The notes beneath the pieces were generated by a model. It searched no databases. It saw nothing but the letters and a program-made list of their open reading frames with translations, and had not been told where the DNA came from. This document shows positions 429-46,541 of a stretch of DNA of 64,000 nucleotides, in pieces. How positions within the stretch are numbered: the first letter of the stretch is position 1; each line of letters starts with the position of its first letter. Made by a program: the position numbers and the translations under genes. Origin of the DNA: Minisyncoccota bacterium (GTDB lineage Bacteria; Patescibacteriota; Minisyncoccia; Phycocordibacterales; UBA9973); assembly GCA_018061145.1 (NCBI GenBank), contig JAGOUR010000001.1, positions 875 through 64,874 of the forward strand. The letters are read 5' to 3'.

Positions 429-1487
429 ATGAACAAACAAAAAACAGTATTTGTCGGTGTTAGTGGTGGAGTAGATAGCTCTGTATCTGCAGCATTACTA
501 AAAGACCAAGGCTACAACGTAGTCGGGGTATTTATTCGTACATGGCAACCTGATTTTATAGAGTGTACATGGCGCGATGAGCGACGGGATGCTATGCGTG
601 TATGTGCACATCTAGATATCCCATTCCTAGAATGCGACGGTGAGGAGGCCTACAAAAATGGCGTAGCAGACTATATGATCTCTGAATACAAACTAGGCAG
701 AACTCCAAATCCAGATGTAATGTGCAATCGTGAAGTAAAATTCGGTGTATTTTGGAATTTTGCAAAATCTCATGGTGCAGACTTTATCGCTACTGGGCAC
801 TACGCGCAGAATATAAATAATAAATTAGTAAAAGGTAATGATGAATCCAAAGATCAGTCGTATTTCCTGTGGACTCTAAATAGTGATGATCTAGAGCACA
901 CACTTTTCCCAATTGGCCATCTACCAAAAACTGAAGTGCGTAAATTGGCAGAAAAATACAAACTACCTACTGCAGTAAAAAAAGATTCTCAGGGTGTATG
1001 CTTCCTGGGACCACTCGATATGAAGGATTTCCTTTCTCACTATATCGAGCCAAAGAAGGGTGATGTTTTAAATGAAGATGGAGATATTATTGGGCACCAC
1101 GATGGCGCCGTATTCTTTACTCTTGGCGAGCGCCACGGTTTTCATATTACGGAAAAGGGGACAACCGATACTCCATACTATGTAATATCAAAAGATATTG
1201 ACAAAAATACAATCTATGTCAGTCCCAGGCCGGGCCTGGGACTGGAGGAGGAAGGATCAAATACGGAGTATGTATTGAATAATTCAAATATTTTAAAAGA
1301 AAATATTGATCAAACCAAAAAATATACAGCGCAGATCAGGTATCACGGAGAATTTTTGAATTGTAGTGTGATGTTTGATGATGTTAATCCAAAAATAACA
1401 TTTGATAATCCTATCCTGGTATCGCCAGGTCAGTCTATCGTAGTATACGATAGAGATATTTGTCTCGGGGGTGGAATCGTGAAATAA
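429..1487 (+). CDS. mnmA: tRNA-specific 2-thiouridylase MnmA
   Basis: N-terminal PP-loop SGGVDSSV and a full-length MnmA-like sequence. Confidence 0.9.
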   Translation: MNKQKTVFVGVSGGVDSSVSAALLKDQGYNVVGVFIRTWQPDFIECTWRDERRDAMRVCAHLDIPFLECDGEEAYKNGVADYMISEYKLGRTPNPDVMCNREVKFGVFWNFAKSHGADFIATGHYAQNINNKLVKGNDESKDQSYFLWTLNSDDLEHTLFPIGHLPKTEVRKLAEKYKLPTAVKKDSQGVCFLGPLDMKDFLSHYIEPKKGDVLNEDGDIIGHHDGAVFFTLGERHGFHITEKGTTDTPYYVISKDIDKNTIYVSPRPGLGLEEEGSNTEYVLNNSNILKENIDQTKKYTAQIRYHGEFLNCSVMFDDVNPKITFDNPILVSPGQSIVVYDRDICLGGGIVK

Positions 1488-2075: not shown

Positions 2076-3815
2076 ATGCAATCAAATGAAATTCGCTCAC
2101 GTTTTCTAGCCTTTTTTGAAAAAAGAGGCCATAAAATAATACCTAGTGCATCACTCGTGCCCGAGAACGACCCATCAGTCCTTTTTAATACAGCTGGAAT
2201 GCAACCCCTCGTGCCATACCTCCTCGGGGAGGTGCACCCAATGGGTAAAAGAATCGCTGATATTCAGAAATGTGTCCGCACAGGAGACCTCGAAGACATC
2301 GGGGACAATCGGCACTTTTCATTTTTTGAAATGATGGGGAACTGGTCATTGGGAGACTACTTTAAAGATGAAGCTATTGCTTGGTCTTATGAATTCCTAA
2401 CTTCAAAAGACGAAGGTCTTGGGCTAGATAAGAGTCGCCTGTATGTGACTATCTTTGAAGGTGATGAAAATGCTCCATACGACCAAGAATCAAAAGATAT
2501 ATGGATGAAGCAAGGTATTCCAGAGAATCGTATCTATGCACTACCTGCAGATGATAACTGGTGGAGTCCTGGAGATAATGGTCCATGTGGCCCTTGTTCT
2601 GAGATGTTCTACGATATGGTAGGTAGTACTGGTGACCTTGACCATGAAGGATTTTTATCTGCAGTAAAAAAGGAGACTGTGATTGAAATCTGGAATGACG
2701 TATTCATGGAATATGAAAAGAAGGACGGAAAAGTAATTGGTAAATTAAAGCAAAAGAATGTAGACACAGGAGCAGGGTTGGAAAGAATATCTGCAGTAAT
2801 GCAAGGTCAGAAAACTGGCTACGAAACAGATATGTTGAAACCAGTTATGGATATGATACGTGAAAATGCTAAGCACCTAGATGATCTTTCTGCTCGCATT
2901 GTAGTAGATCATGTGCGTGCATCAACAATGCTTATTTCTGATGGAGTTATTCCTGCGAACAAAAGTCAGGGTTACGTTTTACGTCGTTTAATTCGCCGTT
3001 CTGTTTTTTATATGAAGAAATTAGGTCTTGATGACGGTATCGCAAACGAAATAATTAATTATTTCATTAATTTTTACTCAAATACATATCCAAGTGTTGC
3101 AGTTGTTGATATTGTTACTATATTTAAAACCGAAGAACAAAAATTCTCTACAACTTTAAATGATGGTAAAAAAGAATTTGAAAAAGGCACAGATCCTTTT
3201 GTTCTTGCGACTACCTATGGATTCCCAATAGAGCTTACTCTTGAATTGGCATCTGAAAAAGGTCAGACTATTGATTTGGAAGACTTTAAAGTTAAAATGG
3301 CTGAACATCAAAAGCTTTCTCAGACAGCATCTGCAGGAATGTTCAAAGGAGGTCTCGCAAACCATAATGACAAGACTATAAAGCTCCACACAGCACACCA
3401 TCTATTGCTAGCTGCACTGCAGGAGGTACTCGGAGTAGAAGTAAAGCAAAGAGGTAGTAATATCACAGAGGAGAGACTACGCATAGACTTTACTTTTGAT
3501 CGAAAAATGACAGATGAAGAGAAGCAAAAGGTGGAAGGCATAGTAAATGAAAAGATAAATGCTGGGTTAAATGTGATTCGACGTGAACTACCTCGTGAGG
3601 AGGCCGAGAAGATCGGTGCTCAGATGGAATTCGGAGCAAAATACCCAGATATGGTATCTGTATACTTCATAGAAGATGAGAGTGGTAATCAATTCTCAAA
3701 AGAATTCTGTGGTGGACCGCATGTGACCAATACAAAAGAGATCGGTCACTTTAAACTTCAAAAAGAAGAAGCATCATCTGCCGGTGTACGCAGAATAAAG
3801 GGAATATTGGAATAA
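2076..3815 (+). CDS. alaS: Alanine--tRNA ligase, short form (catalytic plus editing domains, no C-Ala domain)
   Basis: N-terminal AlaRS class II motifs (FFEMMGNWSLGDY). Editing-domain HTAHHLL and CGGPHV motifs. The gene ends at 579 aa with a terminator directly after. Confidence 0.85.
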   Translation: MQSNEIRSRFLAFFEKRGHKIIPSASLVPENDPSVLFNTAGMQPLVPYLLGEVHPMGKRIADIQKCVRTGDLEDIGDNRHFSFFEMMGNWSLGDYFKDEAIAWSYEFLTSKDEGLGLDKSRLYVTIFEGDENAPYDQESKDIWMKQGIPENRIYALPADDNWWSPGDNGPCGPCSEMFYDMVGSTGDLDHEGFLSAVKKETVIEIWNDVFMEYEKKDGKVIGKLKQKNVDTGAGLERISAVMQGQKTGYETDMLKPVMDMIRENAKHLDDLSARIVVDHVRASTMLISDGVIPANKSQGYVLRRLIRRSVFYMKKLGLDDGIANEIINYFINFYSNTYPSVAVVDIVTIFKTEEQKFSTTLNDGKKEFEKGTDPFVLATTYGFPIELTLELASEKGQTIDLEDFKVKMAEHQKLSQTASAGMFKGGLANHNDKTIKLHTAHHLLLAALQEVLGVEVKQRGSNITEERLRIDFTFDRKMTDEEKQKVEGIVNEKINAGLNVIRRELPREEAEKIGAQMEFGAKYPDMVSVYFIEDESGNQFSKEFCGGPHVTNTKEIGHFKLQKEEASSAGVRRIKGILE

Positions 3816-3819
3816 AAAA

Positions 3820-3848
3820 ATGCTCTAGTATTATCTAGAGCATTTTTC
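3820..3848. terminator. Bidirectional terminator between alaS and the convergent gene
   Basis: atgctctag-tattat-ctagagcat hairpin flanked by an A-run and a T-run. Confidence 0.7.
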
Positions 3849-3864
3849 ATTTCTTCATCAATTT

Positions 3865-4665
3865 TTAACCATTCGTTATTTCTTCATATACCATATTGTC
3901 TTCTGTTAAAAGTGGTATAAAAAAAGTAGACTCCAAATCTAGCCAGCTACCACCGAGCGATGACCATCTTTGGTAGGGGTAGCAATAGAGCATAAATTTG
4001 CCTTTTTCTTCAAAACGGCGTATGTCTACCATCCTTAAATCATCAATACCTGTTGGAATTTCTGGGTACTTTGTATTCAAAACAAACCAATTTCTAGTAG
4101 ATATTTTCTCAGCTAACATAGAAATAATAAAGCAATTCAAAATTTGTTTTGCAGACATACTTAAAATAGAGGGCTCTCTCTTAAATGAATAGAAATAATA
4201 GATAGGTCCGTTACCACCATACTTTTCTTTCATATTGAAAATACGAACATCTCTACTGATTATCTCTGTATTTTCTTTTTGAAGTAGCTCCTTGAATAAT
4301 AGGTCGATCGGAGGGTGATTTCCAAATTCAGCGAAAAAATCCTCGTAGTTTTCTGTCGTGAAGTCTGTGTTGACGCAAATGTCAGTACCAGACCAAACCA
4401 GATCTCTGGTCTCTTCCATTTTTTCAAGCTTTAATTGGGCTTTCTTCTCATTTTCAATTCTGATTTCCTTCTCTTTTCTTTCCCCCCTTTCTTTTTCTTC
4501 TGCCTTCTTGATGTTACGGAGTTGATTACGATTTAATCTGTTTTTGATACTCTTTACAAGAATAATGAATACAATGAATATTAATAATAAAATTATCCAT
4601 TGTTCGTGGTTATGGAATCTTTCAAAAATAGAAGATACCACAAAGATAGCTAAAAATGTTTCCAT
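3865..4665 (-). CDS. Hypothetical membrane-anchored protein with a charged coiled-coil segment
   Basis: N-terminal TM helix, KE-rich repeat region, no recognised catalytic motif. Confidence 0.4.
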   Translation of the reverse strand: METFLAIFVVSSIFERFHNHEQWIILLLIFIVFIILVKSIKNRLNRNQLRNIKKAEEKERGERKEKEIRIENEKKAQLKLEKMEETRDLVWSGTDICVNTDFTTENYEDFFAEFGNHPPIDLLFKELLQKENTEIISRDVRIFNMKEKYGGNGPIYYFYSFKREPSILSMSAKQILNCFIISMLAEKISTRNWFVLNTKYPEIPTGIDDLRMVDIRRFEEKGKFMLYCYPYQRWSSLGGSWLDLESTFFIPLLTEDNMVYEEITNG

Positions 4666-6003: not shown

Positions 6004-7320
6004 ATGGTAAAAAAAGTTGTACAAGATATAAATATCAAAAAACCAAAATTACTAAAATTTGATGAACCAAATGATTCAGTTATTTCTGGGGATTTAGATA
6101 CCGAGCAGAAATTTTCTGCTATATCTCAGATGCAGAGACGAAGACGCATACCTAGTACACCCATGGTAAAGAGAAAGAAGCTCCTGCCTAGATATTTCGT
6201 CTGGATCTTGGTAGCTTTGGTGATTGTATCCCTAGTATATGTATCTTATGCTTTTCTCCAAAAAGCGACAGTATCTATAAATACAAGGAAGCAGAATTTT
6301 ACTTTTAAGGAAGAGGTCTTTACTGCATACAAGCAAAATGAAAAAAAACCTCATTTTGAAATAATGATATTAAATGATGTATATAGTCGAAAGATTAACT
6401 TTATCGACCCCAAAGACGTATCCATAAAGGCACACGGTGTCGTATTTATAAAGAACGAATACAGCTCAAAGCCTCAAAAAATACTGATAAATACTAAAAT
6501 AGCCGATGATTACGGGAGGCTATACACTACAGATAGCACTGTGACAGTGCCTGGTTTTACAAAAGTAAAAGATAAAGTAATCCCTGGATCGACCGCTGTA
6601 AAAGTCACAGCTGTTTCTGCTGGGGAGGAGCACAACACCTCATCAAAAAATTTCTTGATACCTTCTTTTGAAAAGACAGATAAATATACAAAAATTTATG
6701 CTACAGCTCTCAATCCCATCATAGGCGGAGCATTAGGCAAGCTATACAGTCTGGGTCCAGTGGAGATTGGCACATTAAATGCCGAAGCGAATACATTCTT
6801 TCGAGAACAGGCAATGCGTAAACTCTCGGCTCAGATACCCCCTGGGTACATATTGTATCCCGGAGCTACAAATTTCTCTTATTCATTCAATCAGGACTCA
6901 AAATCTAAAGATGCAATAGGTGAAGTCGAGATATCTGGTGTAGTGAATGCTATTATCTTTAAAATTGAAGATTTGGAAAAGGTATTTATAAAGAGAGCTG
7001 GTCCGAACATAAAAGATTCTGAGTACTCTGAAATATCAGTAGAAAATATGGACTCTTTTATTCTAAAGCTTTCTGATAAGAACAAAATCATATCAAAAGA
7101 CATGAATGAGGTATCATTTAGTCTGACTGGTGGTAGTGTCCTGATTTGGAGCCCTGACATAGATCAGATCAGGCAATCCATCCTGGGTCTGGATGTTAAA
7201 GACCTAGGCCAAAAGACTCAAGAGGATCCCGGAGTGGTCGGTTCTAGTGTAGAATTCCTGCTACCTTTCCAAGACAAAATACCAAACAAAACCCATATGG
7301 TTGATGTTAAAACATATTAA
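6004..7320 (+). CDS. Single-pass membrane protein, possible partner of the FtsA/PilM-like protein
   Basis: Arg-rich cytoplasmic N-terminus, one TM helix (YFVWILVALVIVSLVYVSYAF), large extracytoplasmic domain. Starts 4 nt after the upstream gene. Confidence 0.35.
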   Translation: MVKKVVQDINIKKPKLLKFDEPNDSVISGDLDTEQKFSAISQMQRRRRIPSTPMVKRKKLLPRYFVWILVALVIVSLVYVSYAFLQKATVSINTRKQNFTFKEEVFTAYKQNEKKPHFEIMILNDVYSRKINFIDPKDVSIKAHGVVFIKNEYSSKPQKILINTKIADDYGRLYTTDSTVTVPGFTKVKDKVIPGSTAVKVTAVSAGEEHNTSSKNFLIPSFEKTDKYTKIYATALNPIIGGALGKLYSLGPVEIGTLNAEANTFFREQAMRKLSAQIPPGYILYPGATNFSYSFNQDSKSKDAIGEVEISGVVNAIIFKIEDLEKVFIKRAGPNIKDSEYSEISVENMDSFILKLSDKNKIISKDMNEVSFSLTGGSVLIWSPDIDQIRQSILGLDVKDLGQKTQEDPGVVGSSVEFLLPFQDKIPNKTHMVDVKTY

Positions 7321-24812: not shown

Positions 24813-25256
24813 CTATTTGTTTATTATTTGAATTTTGCACTCCCCTATTTCGTCACCTTTTTTAATCTTAAAAGAATGACTTCCCAATTCTTTTATTGGA
24901 TTCGGTATGACGATAGAATGATCGTCTACAATATTACCAGTTTTTTCTTTTATTAATTTTACGAGATCTTTTGGGGAAACAGCAGAAAATAGGTGTCCTT
25001 TTTCATTTGCTTTTATGGTCAATGATAGTGATTCATTATTTATCTTGTCTACCATACTATGGAATATAGCCACTTCTTCATCGTGCTTTTTCTGCATAGA
25101 TTTTTTCTTGCTCTCTACTACAGCTATAGCATTGGGAGTAGCGAGCTCCGCTAGGCCTTTTGCTATTAAGACATTGCGAGCGTATCCATCTGCAAATTCT
25201 TTAATATCATATTTTTTACCAATCTTTTGTATGTCTGCCAATAATATAACTTTCAT
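24813..25256 (-). CDS. rplI: 50S ribosomal protein L9
   Basis: MKVILLADIQKIGKKYDIKEFADGYARNVLI N-terminal domain. Confidence 0.85.
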   Translation of the reverse strand: MKVILLADIQKIGKKYDIKEFADGYARNVLIAKGLAELATPNAIAVVESKKKSMQKKHDEEVAIFHSMVDKINNESLSLTIKANEKGHLFSAVSPKDLVKLIKEKTGNIVDDHSIVIPNPIKELGSHSFKIKKGDEIGECKIQIINK

Positions 25257-25380
25257 CCCATTAGAAGTAGATAATCTTTAGATTATCGTACATTATTTAA
25301 CTAATAATATCGAATATAAATAATTTTTTTAAATAGACCCCGTAGCTAAAACAACATATATGACTTCTAACGGGATTCAT
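25252..25380 (-). mobile_element. MITE-like element copy A (129 bp including the ATGAA target duplications) inserted at the rplI start codon
   Basis: On the minus strand: ATGAAT-CCCGTTAGAAGT ... CTTCTAATGGG-ATGAAA. Internal gataatc-taaa-gattatc hairpin. Creates a 27-codon mini-ORF MNPVRSHICCF... at 25297-25380. Confidence 0.5.
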
Positions 25381-25418
25381 ATATAGAATATAACACTATA
25401 AAATAGCTCATGCAAATA

Positions 25419-37218: not shown

Positions 37219-37254
37219 AGTATTAGTATAGCTTATTTTGTTAATTTTTTAAAA

Positions 37255-38358
37255 TTAGGCAGTTTTCTTTTGTTCTCGTGAGATATTCAAGATTATTCCG
37301 ATGATACCGATAGCTAGGAGTAGGTTCGTACCACCATGAGATACGAAAACAAGTGGAACTCCCGTGAGTGGGAATACTCCGATGATCGATGCGATATTCA
37401 TAAATGATTGAGCAGTGAATAGAGTGATGATACCGATAGTAAATATTTTACTAAAAGAGTCTGGCGAATAGTATGCGATTTTATATCCACGCAAAGCAAA
37501 AGCTACAAAAAGGAATATGAGTAAAGTAGAACCGATGAACCCTACTTCTTCACCTATGACTGCAAATATAGAGTCCCCTTGTGGTTCAGGCAAGTAATTG
37601 AATTTCTGTATACTCTGACCCAGGCCTCTACCAGCCACACCACCCGATCCCAGGGCGATCAGAGATTGCTGGAGCTGATACGAAGATCCGGATGGATCAT
37701 ACGATGGGTCCATAAAAGTTTTTACTCGCTCGAGAAGATATGGCTTTGTCATGACTAGTCCACCAAAAGCGAGCATCGCCACCATAACCATCATCAATAT
37801 ATATTTCCACGGCATACCAGACACGAATAGCATAACCAATGCAGTCGCAGACATGAGAATCAGACTCTTTGTATCAGGCTGATTTATCAAGATAGTAGCG
37901 ATCAGTCCGAGTAGTACCACTAGTGGTAGTACGCTCCACCTCCAATCAGAAACCTTTGTCTTCACCCATGATAGCCAGGCAGAAAAATAAATAACAAAAG
38001 CAATCTTAAGAAATTCCACAGGCTGAAAAGACAATCCGAATACATTGATCCAGCGTCTAGCACCTCCATGAGAGAATCCCACATGTGGCACAAAGACCAG
38101 ACAAGTCAGCACGATAGCCCCGATAAATATATATAGTGAGTATGCCCTCCAGAATTTATACGGAATCTTCATAGTAAAAAACATAGCCACCAATCCACCA
38201 AGTAGTCCAAAGACAAATTGATTGAACATGACTCCGTAGAATTTCGCTTCATTCTTGGCAAGTATCCCCAGAGATGAAGATGTAAACATAACAGCCCCCA
38301 CCACTATGAGGGCTACAACTATACCAAAAAATACTTTGTCGATGTGTTTTGTTTTCAT
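37255..38358 (-). CDS. ftsW: Cell division protein FtsW (SEDS family)
   Basis: 10-TM FtsW/RodA/SpoVE pattern; sits between mraY and murG. Confidence 0.8.
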   Translation of the reverse strand: MKTKHIDKVFFGIVVALIVVGAVMFTSSSLGILAKNEAKFYGVMFNQFVFGLLGGLVAMFFTMKIPYKFWRAYSLYIFIGAIVLTCLVFVPHVGFSHGGARRWINVFGLSFQPVEFLKIAFVIYFSAWLSWVKTKVSDWRWSVLPLVVLLGLIATILINQPDTKSLILMSATALVMLFVSGMPWKYILMMVMVAMLAFGGLVMTKPYLLERVKTFMDPSYDPSGSSYQLQQSLIALGSGGVAGRGLGQSIQKFNYLPEPQGDSIFAVIGEEVGFIGSTLLIFLFVAFALRGYKIAYYSPDSFSKIFTIGIITLFTAQSFMNIASIIGVFPLTGVPLVFVSHGGTNLLLAIGIIGIILNISREQKKTA

Positions 38359-38480
38359 CCCGTTAGAGATAGGAAATGTTTACATTTCCGTATATTTTTA
38401 ATTTCTAGTAAATAATACGACTTTATTTTTTAAACAACCGTAGTTAGAGATAAAACAAACGCATCTCTAACGGGATTCAT
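38354..38480 (-). mobile_element. MITE-like element copy B (127 bp including the ATGAA target duplications) inserted at the ftsW start codon
   Basis: On the minus strand: ATGAAT-CCCGTTAGAGAT ... ATCTCTAACGGG-ATGAAA. Perfect 12-bp inverted repeats. Internal ggaaatgt-aaa-catttcc hairpin (38372-38389). Mini-ORF MNPVRDAFVLSLTTVV at 38430-38480, beginning 2 nt after the mraY stop codon. Confidence 0.55.
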
Positions 38481-42333: not shown

Positions 42334-42546
42334 TTAATGTATATATTGAGGAATCTGTTCACACGGATATCCTACGATAAAGGTCAATGCTACGAGTATC
42401 CAGTAAAATGGAGCAAAAGCAAAATAGATAATCTTGTCTTTTTTCCACATCGGCAGATACCACGCCTGAACTTTCATAAATAGCATAGACAAAGGTATGT
42501 TTATGACATTTAAAAGTATCAGCACAATACTAAGGAAGAATTTCAT
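42334..42546 (-). CDS. Small two-TM membrane protein
   Basis: 70-aa hydrophobic ORF immediately downstream of MITE-like element copy C. Confidence 0.3.
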   Translation of the reverse strand: MKFFLSIVLILLNVINIPLSMLFMKVQAWYLPMWKKDKIIYFAFAPFYWILVALTFIVGYPCEQIPQYIH

Positions 42547-42668
42547 CCCGCTTAGAAGCAGATCGCGATCAGCTCGCTTTTTTGCTTGATTATATTAATA
42601 ATATTTTTAAAGCTTTTTTCCATATTTTTGTTTTTTAAATTGCGATCGCGGCTTCTAACGGGATTCAT
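42542..42668 (-). mobile_element. MITE-like element copy C (127 bp) inserted at the start codon of the small membrane protein
   Basis: On the minus strand: ATGAAT-CCCGTTAGAAGC ... CTTCTAAGCGGG-ATGAAA. The interior is unrelated to copies B and D but carries two GCGATCGC palindromes near its ends. Mini-ORF MNPVRSRDRNLKN... (38 aa) at 42552-42668. Confidence 0.5.
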
Positions 42669-45809: not shown

Positions 45810-45937
45810 ATGAATCCCGTTAGAGATGTGCTTGTCATATTTCTAACATTAGTTGGTACATAAAATAAAGTCGTATTATTTACTAGAAATTAAAAAAATA
45901 CGGTAATGTAAACATTACCTATCTCTAACGGGATGAA
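45810..45937 (+). mobile_element. MITE-like element copy D (128 bp including the ATGAA target duplications) inserted at the recR start codon
   Basis: ATGAAT-CCCGTTAGAGAT(45816-45827) ... ATCTCTAACGGG(45921-45932)-ATGAAC. Internal ggtaatgt-aaa-cattacc hairpin (45902-45919). Mini-ORF MNPVRDVLVIFLTLVGT at 45810-45863. The interior is about 85% identical to copy B. Confidence 0.55.
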
Positions 45938-46541
45938 CCAAATAGAAATACTCGCACAACTTTTCAAGGAATTCCCAGGTATTGGCGAAAGACAAGCCAA
46001 GCGTTTTGTGTATTTTCTATTGCACAAAAATCCTACATATATCCGAGAGCTCAGTGATGCGATAGTCGCAGTCAAAAATACAATAAAGCAATGCCCATCC
46101 TGCTATCTATTCTTTCAGTCTGAGCGCGATAGTCTGTGTGATACTTGCCGTGATCCAAAGACGGATCATACTTCCCTGCTAATCATCGAAAAAGATGCAG
46201 ATCACGAGAGCATTAAAAAGAGCAAGAATTATAGTGGTATGTATTTCATCCTAGGCGGATTGATACCGATCGTCACCAAAGACACACCGAACTTTGTCCG
46301 AGTGAACGAACTGATGCGAGTGATTGAGAATAGATTCAAGAATGAAGGTCTAAAAGAAATCATCATTGCCCTATCGCTAAATCCTCAAGGCGAGAATACT
46401 GACACATATATTCGTGAATTACTAAATAGTTATGATGGCAAGATAAAGATATCGAGCCTGGGCCGTGGACTATCCACAGGATCCGAGCTCGAATATGCCG
46501 ACAGTGAGACAATAAAAAACGCCCTACGCAATCGTTCCTGA
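45933..46541 (+). CDS. recR: Recombination protein RecR
   Basis: N-terminal FPGIGERQAKRFVYFLL HhH motif, C4 zinc finger CPSC...CDTC, Toprim domain. Confidence 0.9.
   Translation: MNQIEILAQLFKEFPGIGERQAKRFVYFLLHKNPTYIRELSDAIVAVKNTIKQCPSCYLFFQSERDSLCDTCRDPKTDHTSLLIIEKDADHESIKKSKNYSGMYFILGGLIPIVTKDTPNFVRVNELMRVIENRFKNEGLKEIIIALSLNPQGENTDTYIRELLNSYDGKIKISSLGRGLSTGSELEYADSETIKNALRNRS

Follow-up and report, generated by a model that had tools for sequence, protein, structure and literature searches.

The stretch of DNA analysed here, 64 kb of contig JAGOUR010000001.1 from a Minisyncoccota bacterium that is referred to at its full length as the window, contains four copies of a short repeat, each of which directly precedes the start codon of a gene. 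The copies are named A, B, C and D and each is read in the sense of the gene downstream. They share the 15-mer ATGAATCCCGTTAGA, which has exactly four matches in the window (45810(+), 38480(-), 25380(-) and 42668(-)); the shuffled window gives 0.14 matches even with 2 mismatches permitted. The layout of each copy is ATGAA, TCCCGTTAGA ... TCTAA(N)GGG, ATGAA, with 117-119 nt separating the two ATGAA sequences. The downstream ATG opens recR (D), ftsW (B), rplI, which encodes L9 (A), and an unannotated open reading frame (ORF) of 70 aa (C) that is hydrophobic and membrane-like, has no Pfam match and is flanked by trpS on one side and a class II aminoacyl-tRNA synthetase gene on the other. As the Pfam matches start at residue 5 (recR), 10 (ftsW) and 1 (rplI), the ATGs of these three genes are taken as the true starts. 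Copies B and D are 96% identical across 55 interior nt despite their different host genes.

A first-pass annotation of this DNA reported that each insertion opens a mini-ORF beginning MNPVR, of 17, 16, 27 and 38 codons in D, B, A and C respectively, and that the mini-ORF of copy B begins 2 nt downstream of the mraY stop, all of which is confirmed. In A, B and D, 43-74 nt separate the stop of the mini-ORF from the host ATG downstream. The mini-ORF of copy C spans the entire element, with its TAA within the 3' terminal inverted repeat (TIR), 5 nt short of the host ATG. These frames of 16-38 codons are the only ORFs of the copies and are not conserved. Judged by sequence, a family of very small mobile elements extends across the Patescibacteria, and the window repeats are non-autonomous, ORF-less members of it. 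The reading favoured here, at a probability of about 0.8, is that they are derivatives of a start-codon-capturing mobile element that encodes a GIY-YIG nuclease, with translational coupling as the likely device that silences its insertions. The features of the four copies are as follows.

45810-45814, + strand: left ATGAA duplication of copy D; captured original recR start and mini-ORF start
45810-45863, + strand: copy D mini-ORF, 17 codons plus TAA, peptide MNPVRDVLVIFLTLVGT
45815-45932, + strand: copy D element, 118 nt, ORF-less
45815-45827, + strand: copy D 5' TIR, TCCCGTTAGAGAT
45902-45919, + strand: copy D subterminal hairpin, GGTAATGTAAACATTACC
45921-45932, + strand: copy D 3' TIR, ATCTCTAACGGG
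45933-46541, + strand: recR; right duplication ATGAA at 45933-45937
38430-38480, - strand: copy B mini-ORF, 16 codons; left ATGAA 38480-38476; mraY stop (TAG) 38485-38483
38359-38475, - strand: copy B element, 117 nt, ORF-less; TIR arms 38474-38463 and 38370-38359; hairpin 38389-38372
37255-38358, - strand: ftsW; right duplication ATGAA 38358-38354
25297-25380, - strand: copy A mini-ORF, 27 codons; left ATGAA 25380-25376
25257-25375, - strand: copy A element, 119 nt, ORF-less; hairpin GATAATCTAAAGATTATC; arms CCCGTTAGAAGT (25374-25363) and ACTTCTAATGGG (25268-25257), paired with one G.U
24813-25256, - strand: rplI (L9); right duplication ATGAA 25256-25252
42552-42668, - strand: copy C mini-ORF, 38 codons; left ATGAA 42668-42664
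42547-42663, - strand: copy C element, 117 nt, ORF-less, 'CGCGATCGC' subtype; arms 42662-42651 and 42559-42547, with a 1-nt bulge and an extended stem
42334-42546, - strand: 70-aa hydrophobic ORF; right duplication ATGAA 42546-42542

Target site and distribution of the family

A scan of one genome per species, with two termini at the spacing of the window's MITEs (miniature inverted-repeat transposable elements) and with the flanks unconstrained, gave at least 120 loci with the termini of the window copies, nearly all of them in Patescibacteria. The lineages listed are Saccharibacteria, Paceibacterota/Parcubacteria, Kaiser-, Nomura-, Wolfe- and Yanofskybacteria and others, and a few of the listed metagenome-assembled genomes are labelled Omnitrophota, WOR-3, Sedimentisphaerales or Gammaproteobacteria. 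Similarly, a metagenome scan in which the termini were 240-270 nt apart, the right flank alone being fixed as ATG, gave at least 120 loci with ~277-bp copies. Both patterns found zero matches in IMG/VR, and carriage by phages was rejected. Among the matches listed, the termini are nucleotide-invariant across phyla, synonymous positions included. The element interiors at the listed loci are extremely diverse, and pairs with similar interiors have the same orientation relative to the host gene by 28 to 2 (one self-match removed).

The listed genome loci are almost always flanked in the form ATGN-element-GNA, where N, which may be any of the four bases, is the same on both sides, and positions 4 and 5 of the duplication covary between left and right. 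One copy (L154:7609-7704) is flanked by ATTTA on both sides, which means that the duplication is a full 5 bp and that the ATG lies outside the element. Tandem copies (L059, L012) have one ATGAA in common. With the listed loci oriented on the ATG, an ORF of 67 aa or more begins at 100 of the 112 downstream ATGs. The insertion site is ATG-N-A, mostly ATGAA, and it is the first codon of the host gene in ~90% of the copies examined. The elements are sense-oriented and have a 5-bp target duplication, the original start and its upstream initiation signals standing before the element and a fresh ATG before the host gene. Among the secondary copies, those not selected by the search patterns, about two thirds have perfect ATGNN/ATGNN repeats (ATGAA, ATGGA, ATGAG, ATGGG) and about one fifth adjoin a host ATG and have no left ATG.

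That the insertions carry an ATGAA duplication which regenerates the start codon, as the first-pass annotation had it, is borne out by the ftsW site of relatives. This site is filled with the same insert in L242, the FtsW of which is 99% identical, and is empty in L243-L247 (FtsW identities 84%, 79% and 73%), where the mraY stop is followed by 1-8 nt and then by the single ATGAA that opens ftsW. An exact-protein look-up of RecR returned only one short contig, which begins 66 nt upstream of recR, within the repeat.

Two variants of the family were also observed. The first is a subfamily with the host ATG at the right and C(C/T)TG(T/C) instead of ATGNA at the left (L006:~3780-3949, L011:~7120-7238 and L089:~545-662 (minus strand); L181:610-707 and 789-889; L042:4813-4918), often ~13 nt downstream of a TGnTATAAT -10 box. 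As this subfamily has neither a duplication nor a mini-ORF start, the element would form the entire 5' untranslated region. The second is a shorter size class of 76-82 nt with the same termini (L239:2287-2567, L030:4316-4391, L035:160-237, L104:3931-4011 and L157:910-986); in L239 the rpmJ (L36) gene is flanked by an insertion at its own start and another at the start of the next gene.

The full-length GIY-YIG cassette

The first full-length copy (L074:3889-4164), reached via stray termini in fetched loci, is 276 bp long and has the same inverted repeats, with an 84-aa GIY-YIG ORF whose TAA lies within the repeat; in L014 the GIY-YIG gene ends ...GGA TGA on the ftsW ATG. The cassette is ~277 bp with TIRs TCCCGTTAGA.../...TCTAACGGGA, and the ORF for its sole product, a stand-alone GIY-YIG nuclease, is 84-95 aa long. 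Of the 121 listed long copies, 111 have the ORF in the orientation of the host gene, 2 have it inverted and 8 lack it; it is intact in 99. About half of the intact ORFs (48) begin at the captured ATG, reading MNPVR..., MSPVR or another variant, and in ~26 of them the catalytic motif is preceded by no other Met. The ORF ends with a TGA that overlaps the host ATG in 82 of the 99 (...RFLSLTG*, where GGG ATG A is read as GGA TGA) or with a TAA 4 nt upstream of it in 16 (...GASYL*, TAA-CGGG-ATG). A complete example of the captured start and stop arrangement is L162:885-1172/1169. Where the ORF starts at the captured ATG, NPVR (codons 2-5) is the 5' terminal repeat; the 12 nt adjoining the host ATG are the 3' inverted repeat and also encode the C-terminus and stop of the nuclease.

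The ORF matches the Pfam GIY-YIG domain (PF01541) with an E value of 8.4e-18 and 64.9 bits (cut-off 22.6). The GIY, YIG, Arg, His and Glu positions (Y, Y-TG, R, H, E) are at least 95% conserved in the 99 listed ORFs. The nearest solved structures are UPF0213 proteins (1zg2, E 3e-5; 1ywl, E 2e-3), to which the similarity is remote, and the 4,283 database clusters found at E<=1e-10 are named just 'GIY-YIG nuclease family protein' or 'putative endonuclease'.

Only the ends of the window copies match full-length elements, for 18-20 nt on the left and 25-29 nt on the right. The hairpin of A, B and D maps to an inverted repeat of the full-length element, formed by the LRKR codons (CGGAAACG...) and the KRFLS codons (...CGTTTCCT). 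From the shared ends and this mapping we infer that the window copies are deletion derivatives; they are short and ORF-less, with TIRs, a target duplication, empty sites and ends common to a longer coding element, as in MITEs. The MNPVR mini-ORFs would thus be the vestigial 5' end of a lost nuclease ORF. That the mini-ORF and stem form a dedicated regulatory device is not supported, since the MNPVR codons and the 3' arm are the TIRs and ORF ends of the GIY-YIG element.

It is proposed, tentatively and at somewhat less than even odds, that the ~277-bp cassette is an autonomous transposon of a new class, with the ~90-aa GIY-YIG nuclease as its transposase, that it is rendered harmless by start capture and coupling, and that the window copies are its MITEs. 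Such a transposon would be the smallest known to us, and we know of no prokaryotic insertion sequence (IS) family with a GIY-YIG nuclease. Mobility would most likely be catalysed in trans by the nuclease of the family. A staggered cut at ATGNA may leave non-palindromic 5-nt ends on donor and target that host ligase joins, a proposal that fits the fixed orientation, the matching repeats, the precise empty sites and the tandem arrays. A literature search that included the terminal motif, with most subscription journals outside its coverage, found no account of the element.

Three further observations concern the cassettes. In full-length copies the LRKR(L/F) and (K/S)RFLS codons are typically mutual inverted repeats, as at L162:960-985 and 1140-1165 (CGGAAACGACT / AGTCGTTTCCT, around the palindrome AAACGTTT), and their pairing would give a second long-range stem just inside the terminal one. 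Elements of ~280 nt with the same termini and no GIY-YIG ORF on either strand occur at L143:248-531, L150:6095-6370 and L209:1046-1316; the first has CGCGA(C/T)CGC ends, as in the copy C subtype, and an unrelated 85-aa open frame from the captured ATG. Finally, small GIY-YIG genes that do not have these inverted repeats are found beside tRNA genes at L004:4330-4760(-), bracketed by duplicated tRNA 5' segments, and at L012:2130-2560(-), bracketed by a ~40-nt block repeated three times, which suggests further mobile GIY-YIG cassette families with other targets.

Terminal stem, translation and alternative explanations

The terminal arms were described in the first-pass annotation as exactly complementary over 12 nt. 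This holds for B and D (CCCGTTAGAGAT/ATCTCTAACGGG), where the stem reaches 14 bp if the A-U and U-A pairs with the A and U of the host AUG are included, but not for copy A, which has one G.U, or for copy C, which has a 1-nt bulge and a 7-bp extension. All four copies have the stem in their minimum free energy fold (-33.5 to -36.4 kcal/mol, z -3.3 to -5.3). The sequestration of the start codon is likewise predicted in part: in all four copies the host AUG is paired at its A and U (p>=0.92), but its G is free. If the 5' arm is masked, as it would be by a ribosome on codons 1-6, the predicted loss of structure is 17-20 kcal/mol and the predicted accessibility of positions -6..+3 rises from 0.11-0.18 to 0.27-0.41, the freed 3' arm being predicted to re-pair locally. 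There is no Shine-Dalgarno-like sequence before the regenerated ATG.

The hairpin beside the 3' arm in A, B and D shows compensatory changes (GGTAATG/CATTACC, GGAAATG/CATTTCC, GATAATC/GATTATC). In an alignment of the listed genome loci, the 3 stem positions outside the search pattern show covariation, each with 41-45 double-sided changes (AU, GC, CG, UA). Stem mismatches among these loci are about equally G.U (15) and A.C (11); as the two show no asymmetry, nothing here speaks for RNA-specific selection on the stem, and this idea was rejected. A known RNA family or self-cleaving ribozyme was also rejected, as Rfam gave no match at the gathering score in the window and only noise (E>1) for the elements with permissive filters; hammerhead and group I features were looked for by eye and none was seen.

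In a consensus scan, B, C and D yielded no persuasive sense promoter and A yielded only weak AT-rich matches, and an element-borne promoter was discarded. On the strand antisense to the host gene, a T-run follows the hairpins of D and B (45902-45919, - strand; 38372-38389, + strand), which score as intrinsic terminators for antisense transcription only. Upstream of copy A, a promoter-like site at 25387-25416(-) (TTTGCA, 18 nt, TG-n-TATATT) ends 7 nt before the captured ATG. At this distance the rplI mRNA was probably leaderless or near-leaderless before the insertion, and the mini-ORF of copy A is now probably the 5' end of the rplI transcript.

In 105 ORF-less copies of the family the frame of the captured ATG is open to the 3' repeat in 40 (38%), compared with 3/210 (1.4%) in the two remaining frames and 10% when the sequence is shuffled with its composition preserved. 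The read-through peptides, of 34-42 aa, are unrelated in sequence. An early stop is found in the other 62%. Across copies the stop positions range from 6 to 42 codons; copy C belongs to the read-through class and A, B and D do not. Across the family there thus looks to be selection for translation through the element and not for the peptide. The earlier suggestion that translation matters, and not the peptide, agrees with the excess over shuffles, but early stops are found in three of the four window copies, and about one fifth of copies have no ATG upstream.

Expression of the element's ORF would be driven by the captured start codon and the signals that lie upstream of it. A ribosome reading this ORF would melt the terminal stem, because both arms lie within it, terminate on the host ATG and re-initiate there by stop/start coupling. 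With host translation coupled in this way, an insertion could be nearly silent. The pairing of the A and U of the host AUG and the lack of a Shine-Dalgarno-like sequence would discourage independent initiation and so enforce the coupling. In A, B and D, translation of the host gene would require re-initiation or a transient opening of the stem.

Several points weigh against the favoured reading. The stops of A, B and D, 43-74 nt upstream, mean that the coupling geometry is absent from three of the four window copies. A tblastn search of the 64-kb window with the GIY-YIG protein gave no match and there is no full-length copy there, so that a trans-acting source in this genome has to be assumed. 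A comparison of the ORF-less interiors with the nuclease gene by nhmmer gave no homology above the shuffled control, and we know of no GIY-YIG enzyme that acts as a transposase. The insertion of all four window copies at start codons is not significant once coding-disrupting sites are excluded, the window having 17 start sites and ~12 intergenic sites with ATGAA that would not disrupt coding, and the case for start codons consequently rests on the family-wide data.

The alternative that survives best is purely DNA-level: the termini would be recognition and cleavage sites only, the mini-ORF and mRNA stem neutral by-products, and the host ATG translated independently. The invariance of the termini across phyla even at synonymous positions, the near equality of G.U and A.C mismatches, the frequency of early stops in ORF-less copies and the absence of the left ATG from some copies are all as it would predict. 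It leaves unexplained, however, a read-through excess of 3.7-fold, a nuclease stop that almost universally falls on the host ATG or 4 nt ahead of it, and a regenerated ATG that has no Shine-Dalgarno-like sequence and has two of its three bases inside a 14-bp stem. On balance it is judged rather unlikely, though it deserves to be taken seriously.

The first-pass annotation proposed that the element is, or became, an upstream-ORF-dependent translational switch for ftsW, recR and rplI, in which the stem hides the host AUG and translation of the mini-ORF opens it. The predicted pairing of the AUG in all four copies, the effect of masking the 5' arm, the family-wide excess of open frames with unconserved peptides and the stop/start overlap built into full-length copies are in keeping with such a switch. 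Against it, the mini-ORFs of A, B and D end well before the host ATG, about one fifth of the unbiased copies adjoin a host ATG with no upstream ATG, and the freed 3' arm is predicted to re-pair locally. No signal-responsive feature is seen: there is no sensor, conserved peptide or stalling motif, and the stem does not have an RNA-specific G.U bias. All of the features are accounted for as the ends of a transposon, and a switch is therefore considered improbable.

Still less credence is given to a folded element that is looped out on the mRNA, as in phage T4 gene 38, or cut by RNase III, as in the Neisseria Correia/nemis elements. In the looped form the native initiation region upstream would be placed beside the second AUG. 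The stem would bring the two ATGAA copies together, the promoter of copy A would start the transcript near the first ATG, and a perfect 14-bp duplex is a plausible RNase III substrate. Cleavage would, however, part the gene from its initiation signals, and neither the open-frame excess nor the stop/start overlap would be explained.

Finally, palindrome-associated transposable elements (PATEs) of the IS200/IS605 type or integron attC-like sites, moved by an HUH transposase or integrase and not by the GIY-YIG protein, share a strict target pentanucleotide, fixed orientation and subterminal hairpins with the family, and GTTAGAG/CTCTAAC resembles the attC core GTTRRRY/RYYYAAC, but the cargo of 111 of the 121 listed long copies is a GIY-YIG ORF that ends in the repeats, and no other transposase gene was noticed beside the inspected copies, the loci not having been screened systematically, so that the idea retains almost no probability. 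IS200/IS605 elements make no target duplication; PATEs derived from them lie 3' of a fixed tetra- or pentanucleotide and carry subterminal hairpins in place of TIRs. A PATE was rejected on the covariation of positions 4-5, the ATTTA/ATTTA copy, which marks a true 5-bp duplication, and termini that are true inverted repeats. An attC site was rejected because the box order GTTAGAG...CTCTAAC is opposite to the R''(RYYYAAC)...R'(GTTRRRY) of attC and because the copies lie at the 5' ends of scattered housekeeping genes, whereas attC sites are found at the 3' ends of arrayed cassettes.

Two features of the wider region were also noted. In L242 two additional genes lie between ftsW and murG (L242:2684-3781), encoding a protein of 165 aa with Cas2/PaaX_M Pfam matches and one of 166 aa; they are absent from the window (37219-37254), and the difference is a recent indel between near-identical genomes. 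The sign of the GC skew reverses near 23-24 kb, at the point where + strand genes (1-23 kb) give way to - strand genes (23-44 kb) in a terminus-like convergence, and gene orientation reverses again at 44.3 kb, upstream of dnaB, with no clear change in skew.

Comparison with known systems

If the derivation from a start-codon-capturing GIY-YIG element is correct, the genomes of Patescibacteria are peppered with a previously unrecognised selfish element, the target of which is the sole position in a gene where a 5-bp duplication restores function and which is expressed from the initiation signals of its host. This would add a route to phenotypically silent mobile DNA beside introns, inteins and IStrons, and would point to a role for some members of the very large 'GIY-YIG nuclease family protein' / UPF0213-like group. 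Gene calling would be affected, as the nuclease ORF or mini-ORF may be mistaken for the start of a gene, and assemblies would break at the repeats. The family would also offer a natural system for termination-reinitiation coupling in organisms with reduced ribosomes, and the strict ATGNA specificity of a 90-aa nuclease would be of biotechnological interest.

The window copies resemble the Correia/nemis MITEs of Neisseria, the ERIC of enterobacteria and the RUP of pneumococci, which are likewise ~100-150 nt long and non-coding, with TIRs, a short target duplication and many copies, and which are co-transcribed with their neighbours and predicted to form a long hairpin; Correia and ERIC similarly lack an internal transposase. 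Those elements, however, duplicate TA and insert in either orientation anywhere between genes, whereas the present family duplicates ATGNA, is found at start codons in one orientation and has ends in common with a nuclease-coding parent that uses the captured start.

Several free-standing GIY-YIG/HNH homing endonuclease genes of T4-like phages overlap the start or stop codons of their neighbours, suggesting translational coupling (PMC2988022). The seg and mob genes of these phages are also promoter-less nuclease cassettes that are co-oriented with their neighbours and carried on host transcripts. They differ in that they encode DNA-binding domains, cleave far away from the gene itself and pass between homologous genomes through double-strand-break repair, and they have no inverted repeats, target duplication, ORF-less derivatives or multiple unrelated loci per genome. 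The present family is likewise set apart from free-standing homing endonucleases by its copies at many unrelated genes per genome, its TIRs and its 5-bp duplication.

The stand-alone GIY-YIG proteins (UPF0213 / YhbQ / prokaryotic Slx1-like) are described as the minimal form of GIY-YIG, with no known function (PMC1564403). Dunin-Horkawicz et al. (PMC1564403) discuss this minimal stand-alone type and do not describe the present element. The nuclease studied here shares their domain-only architecture and size of ~90-100 aa, but no report was found of these proteins as the cargo of repeat-bounded mobile cassettes.

The family is also akin to group I and II introns, inteins, IStrons, T4 gene 60 and the mitochondrial 'byp' elements, in all of which an essential gene is invaded and expression of the host is restored. 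Those elements act by RNA splicing, protein splicing or ribosome hopping, whereas the means proposed here are regeneration of the start codon and stop/start coupling.

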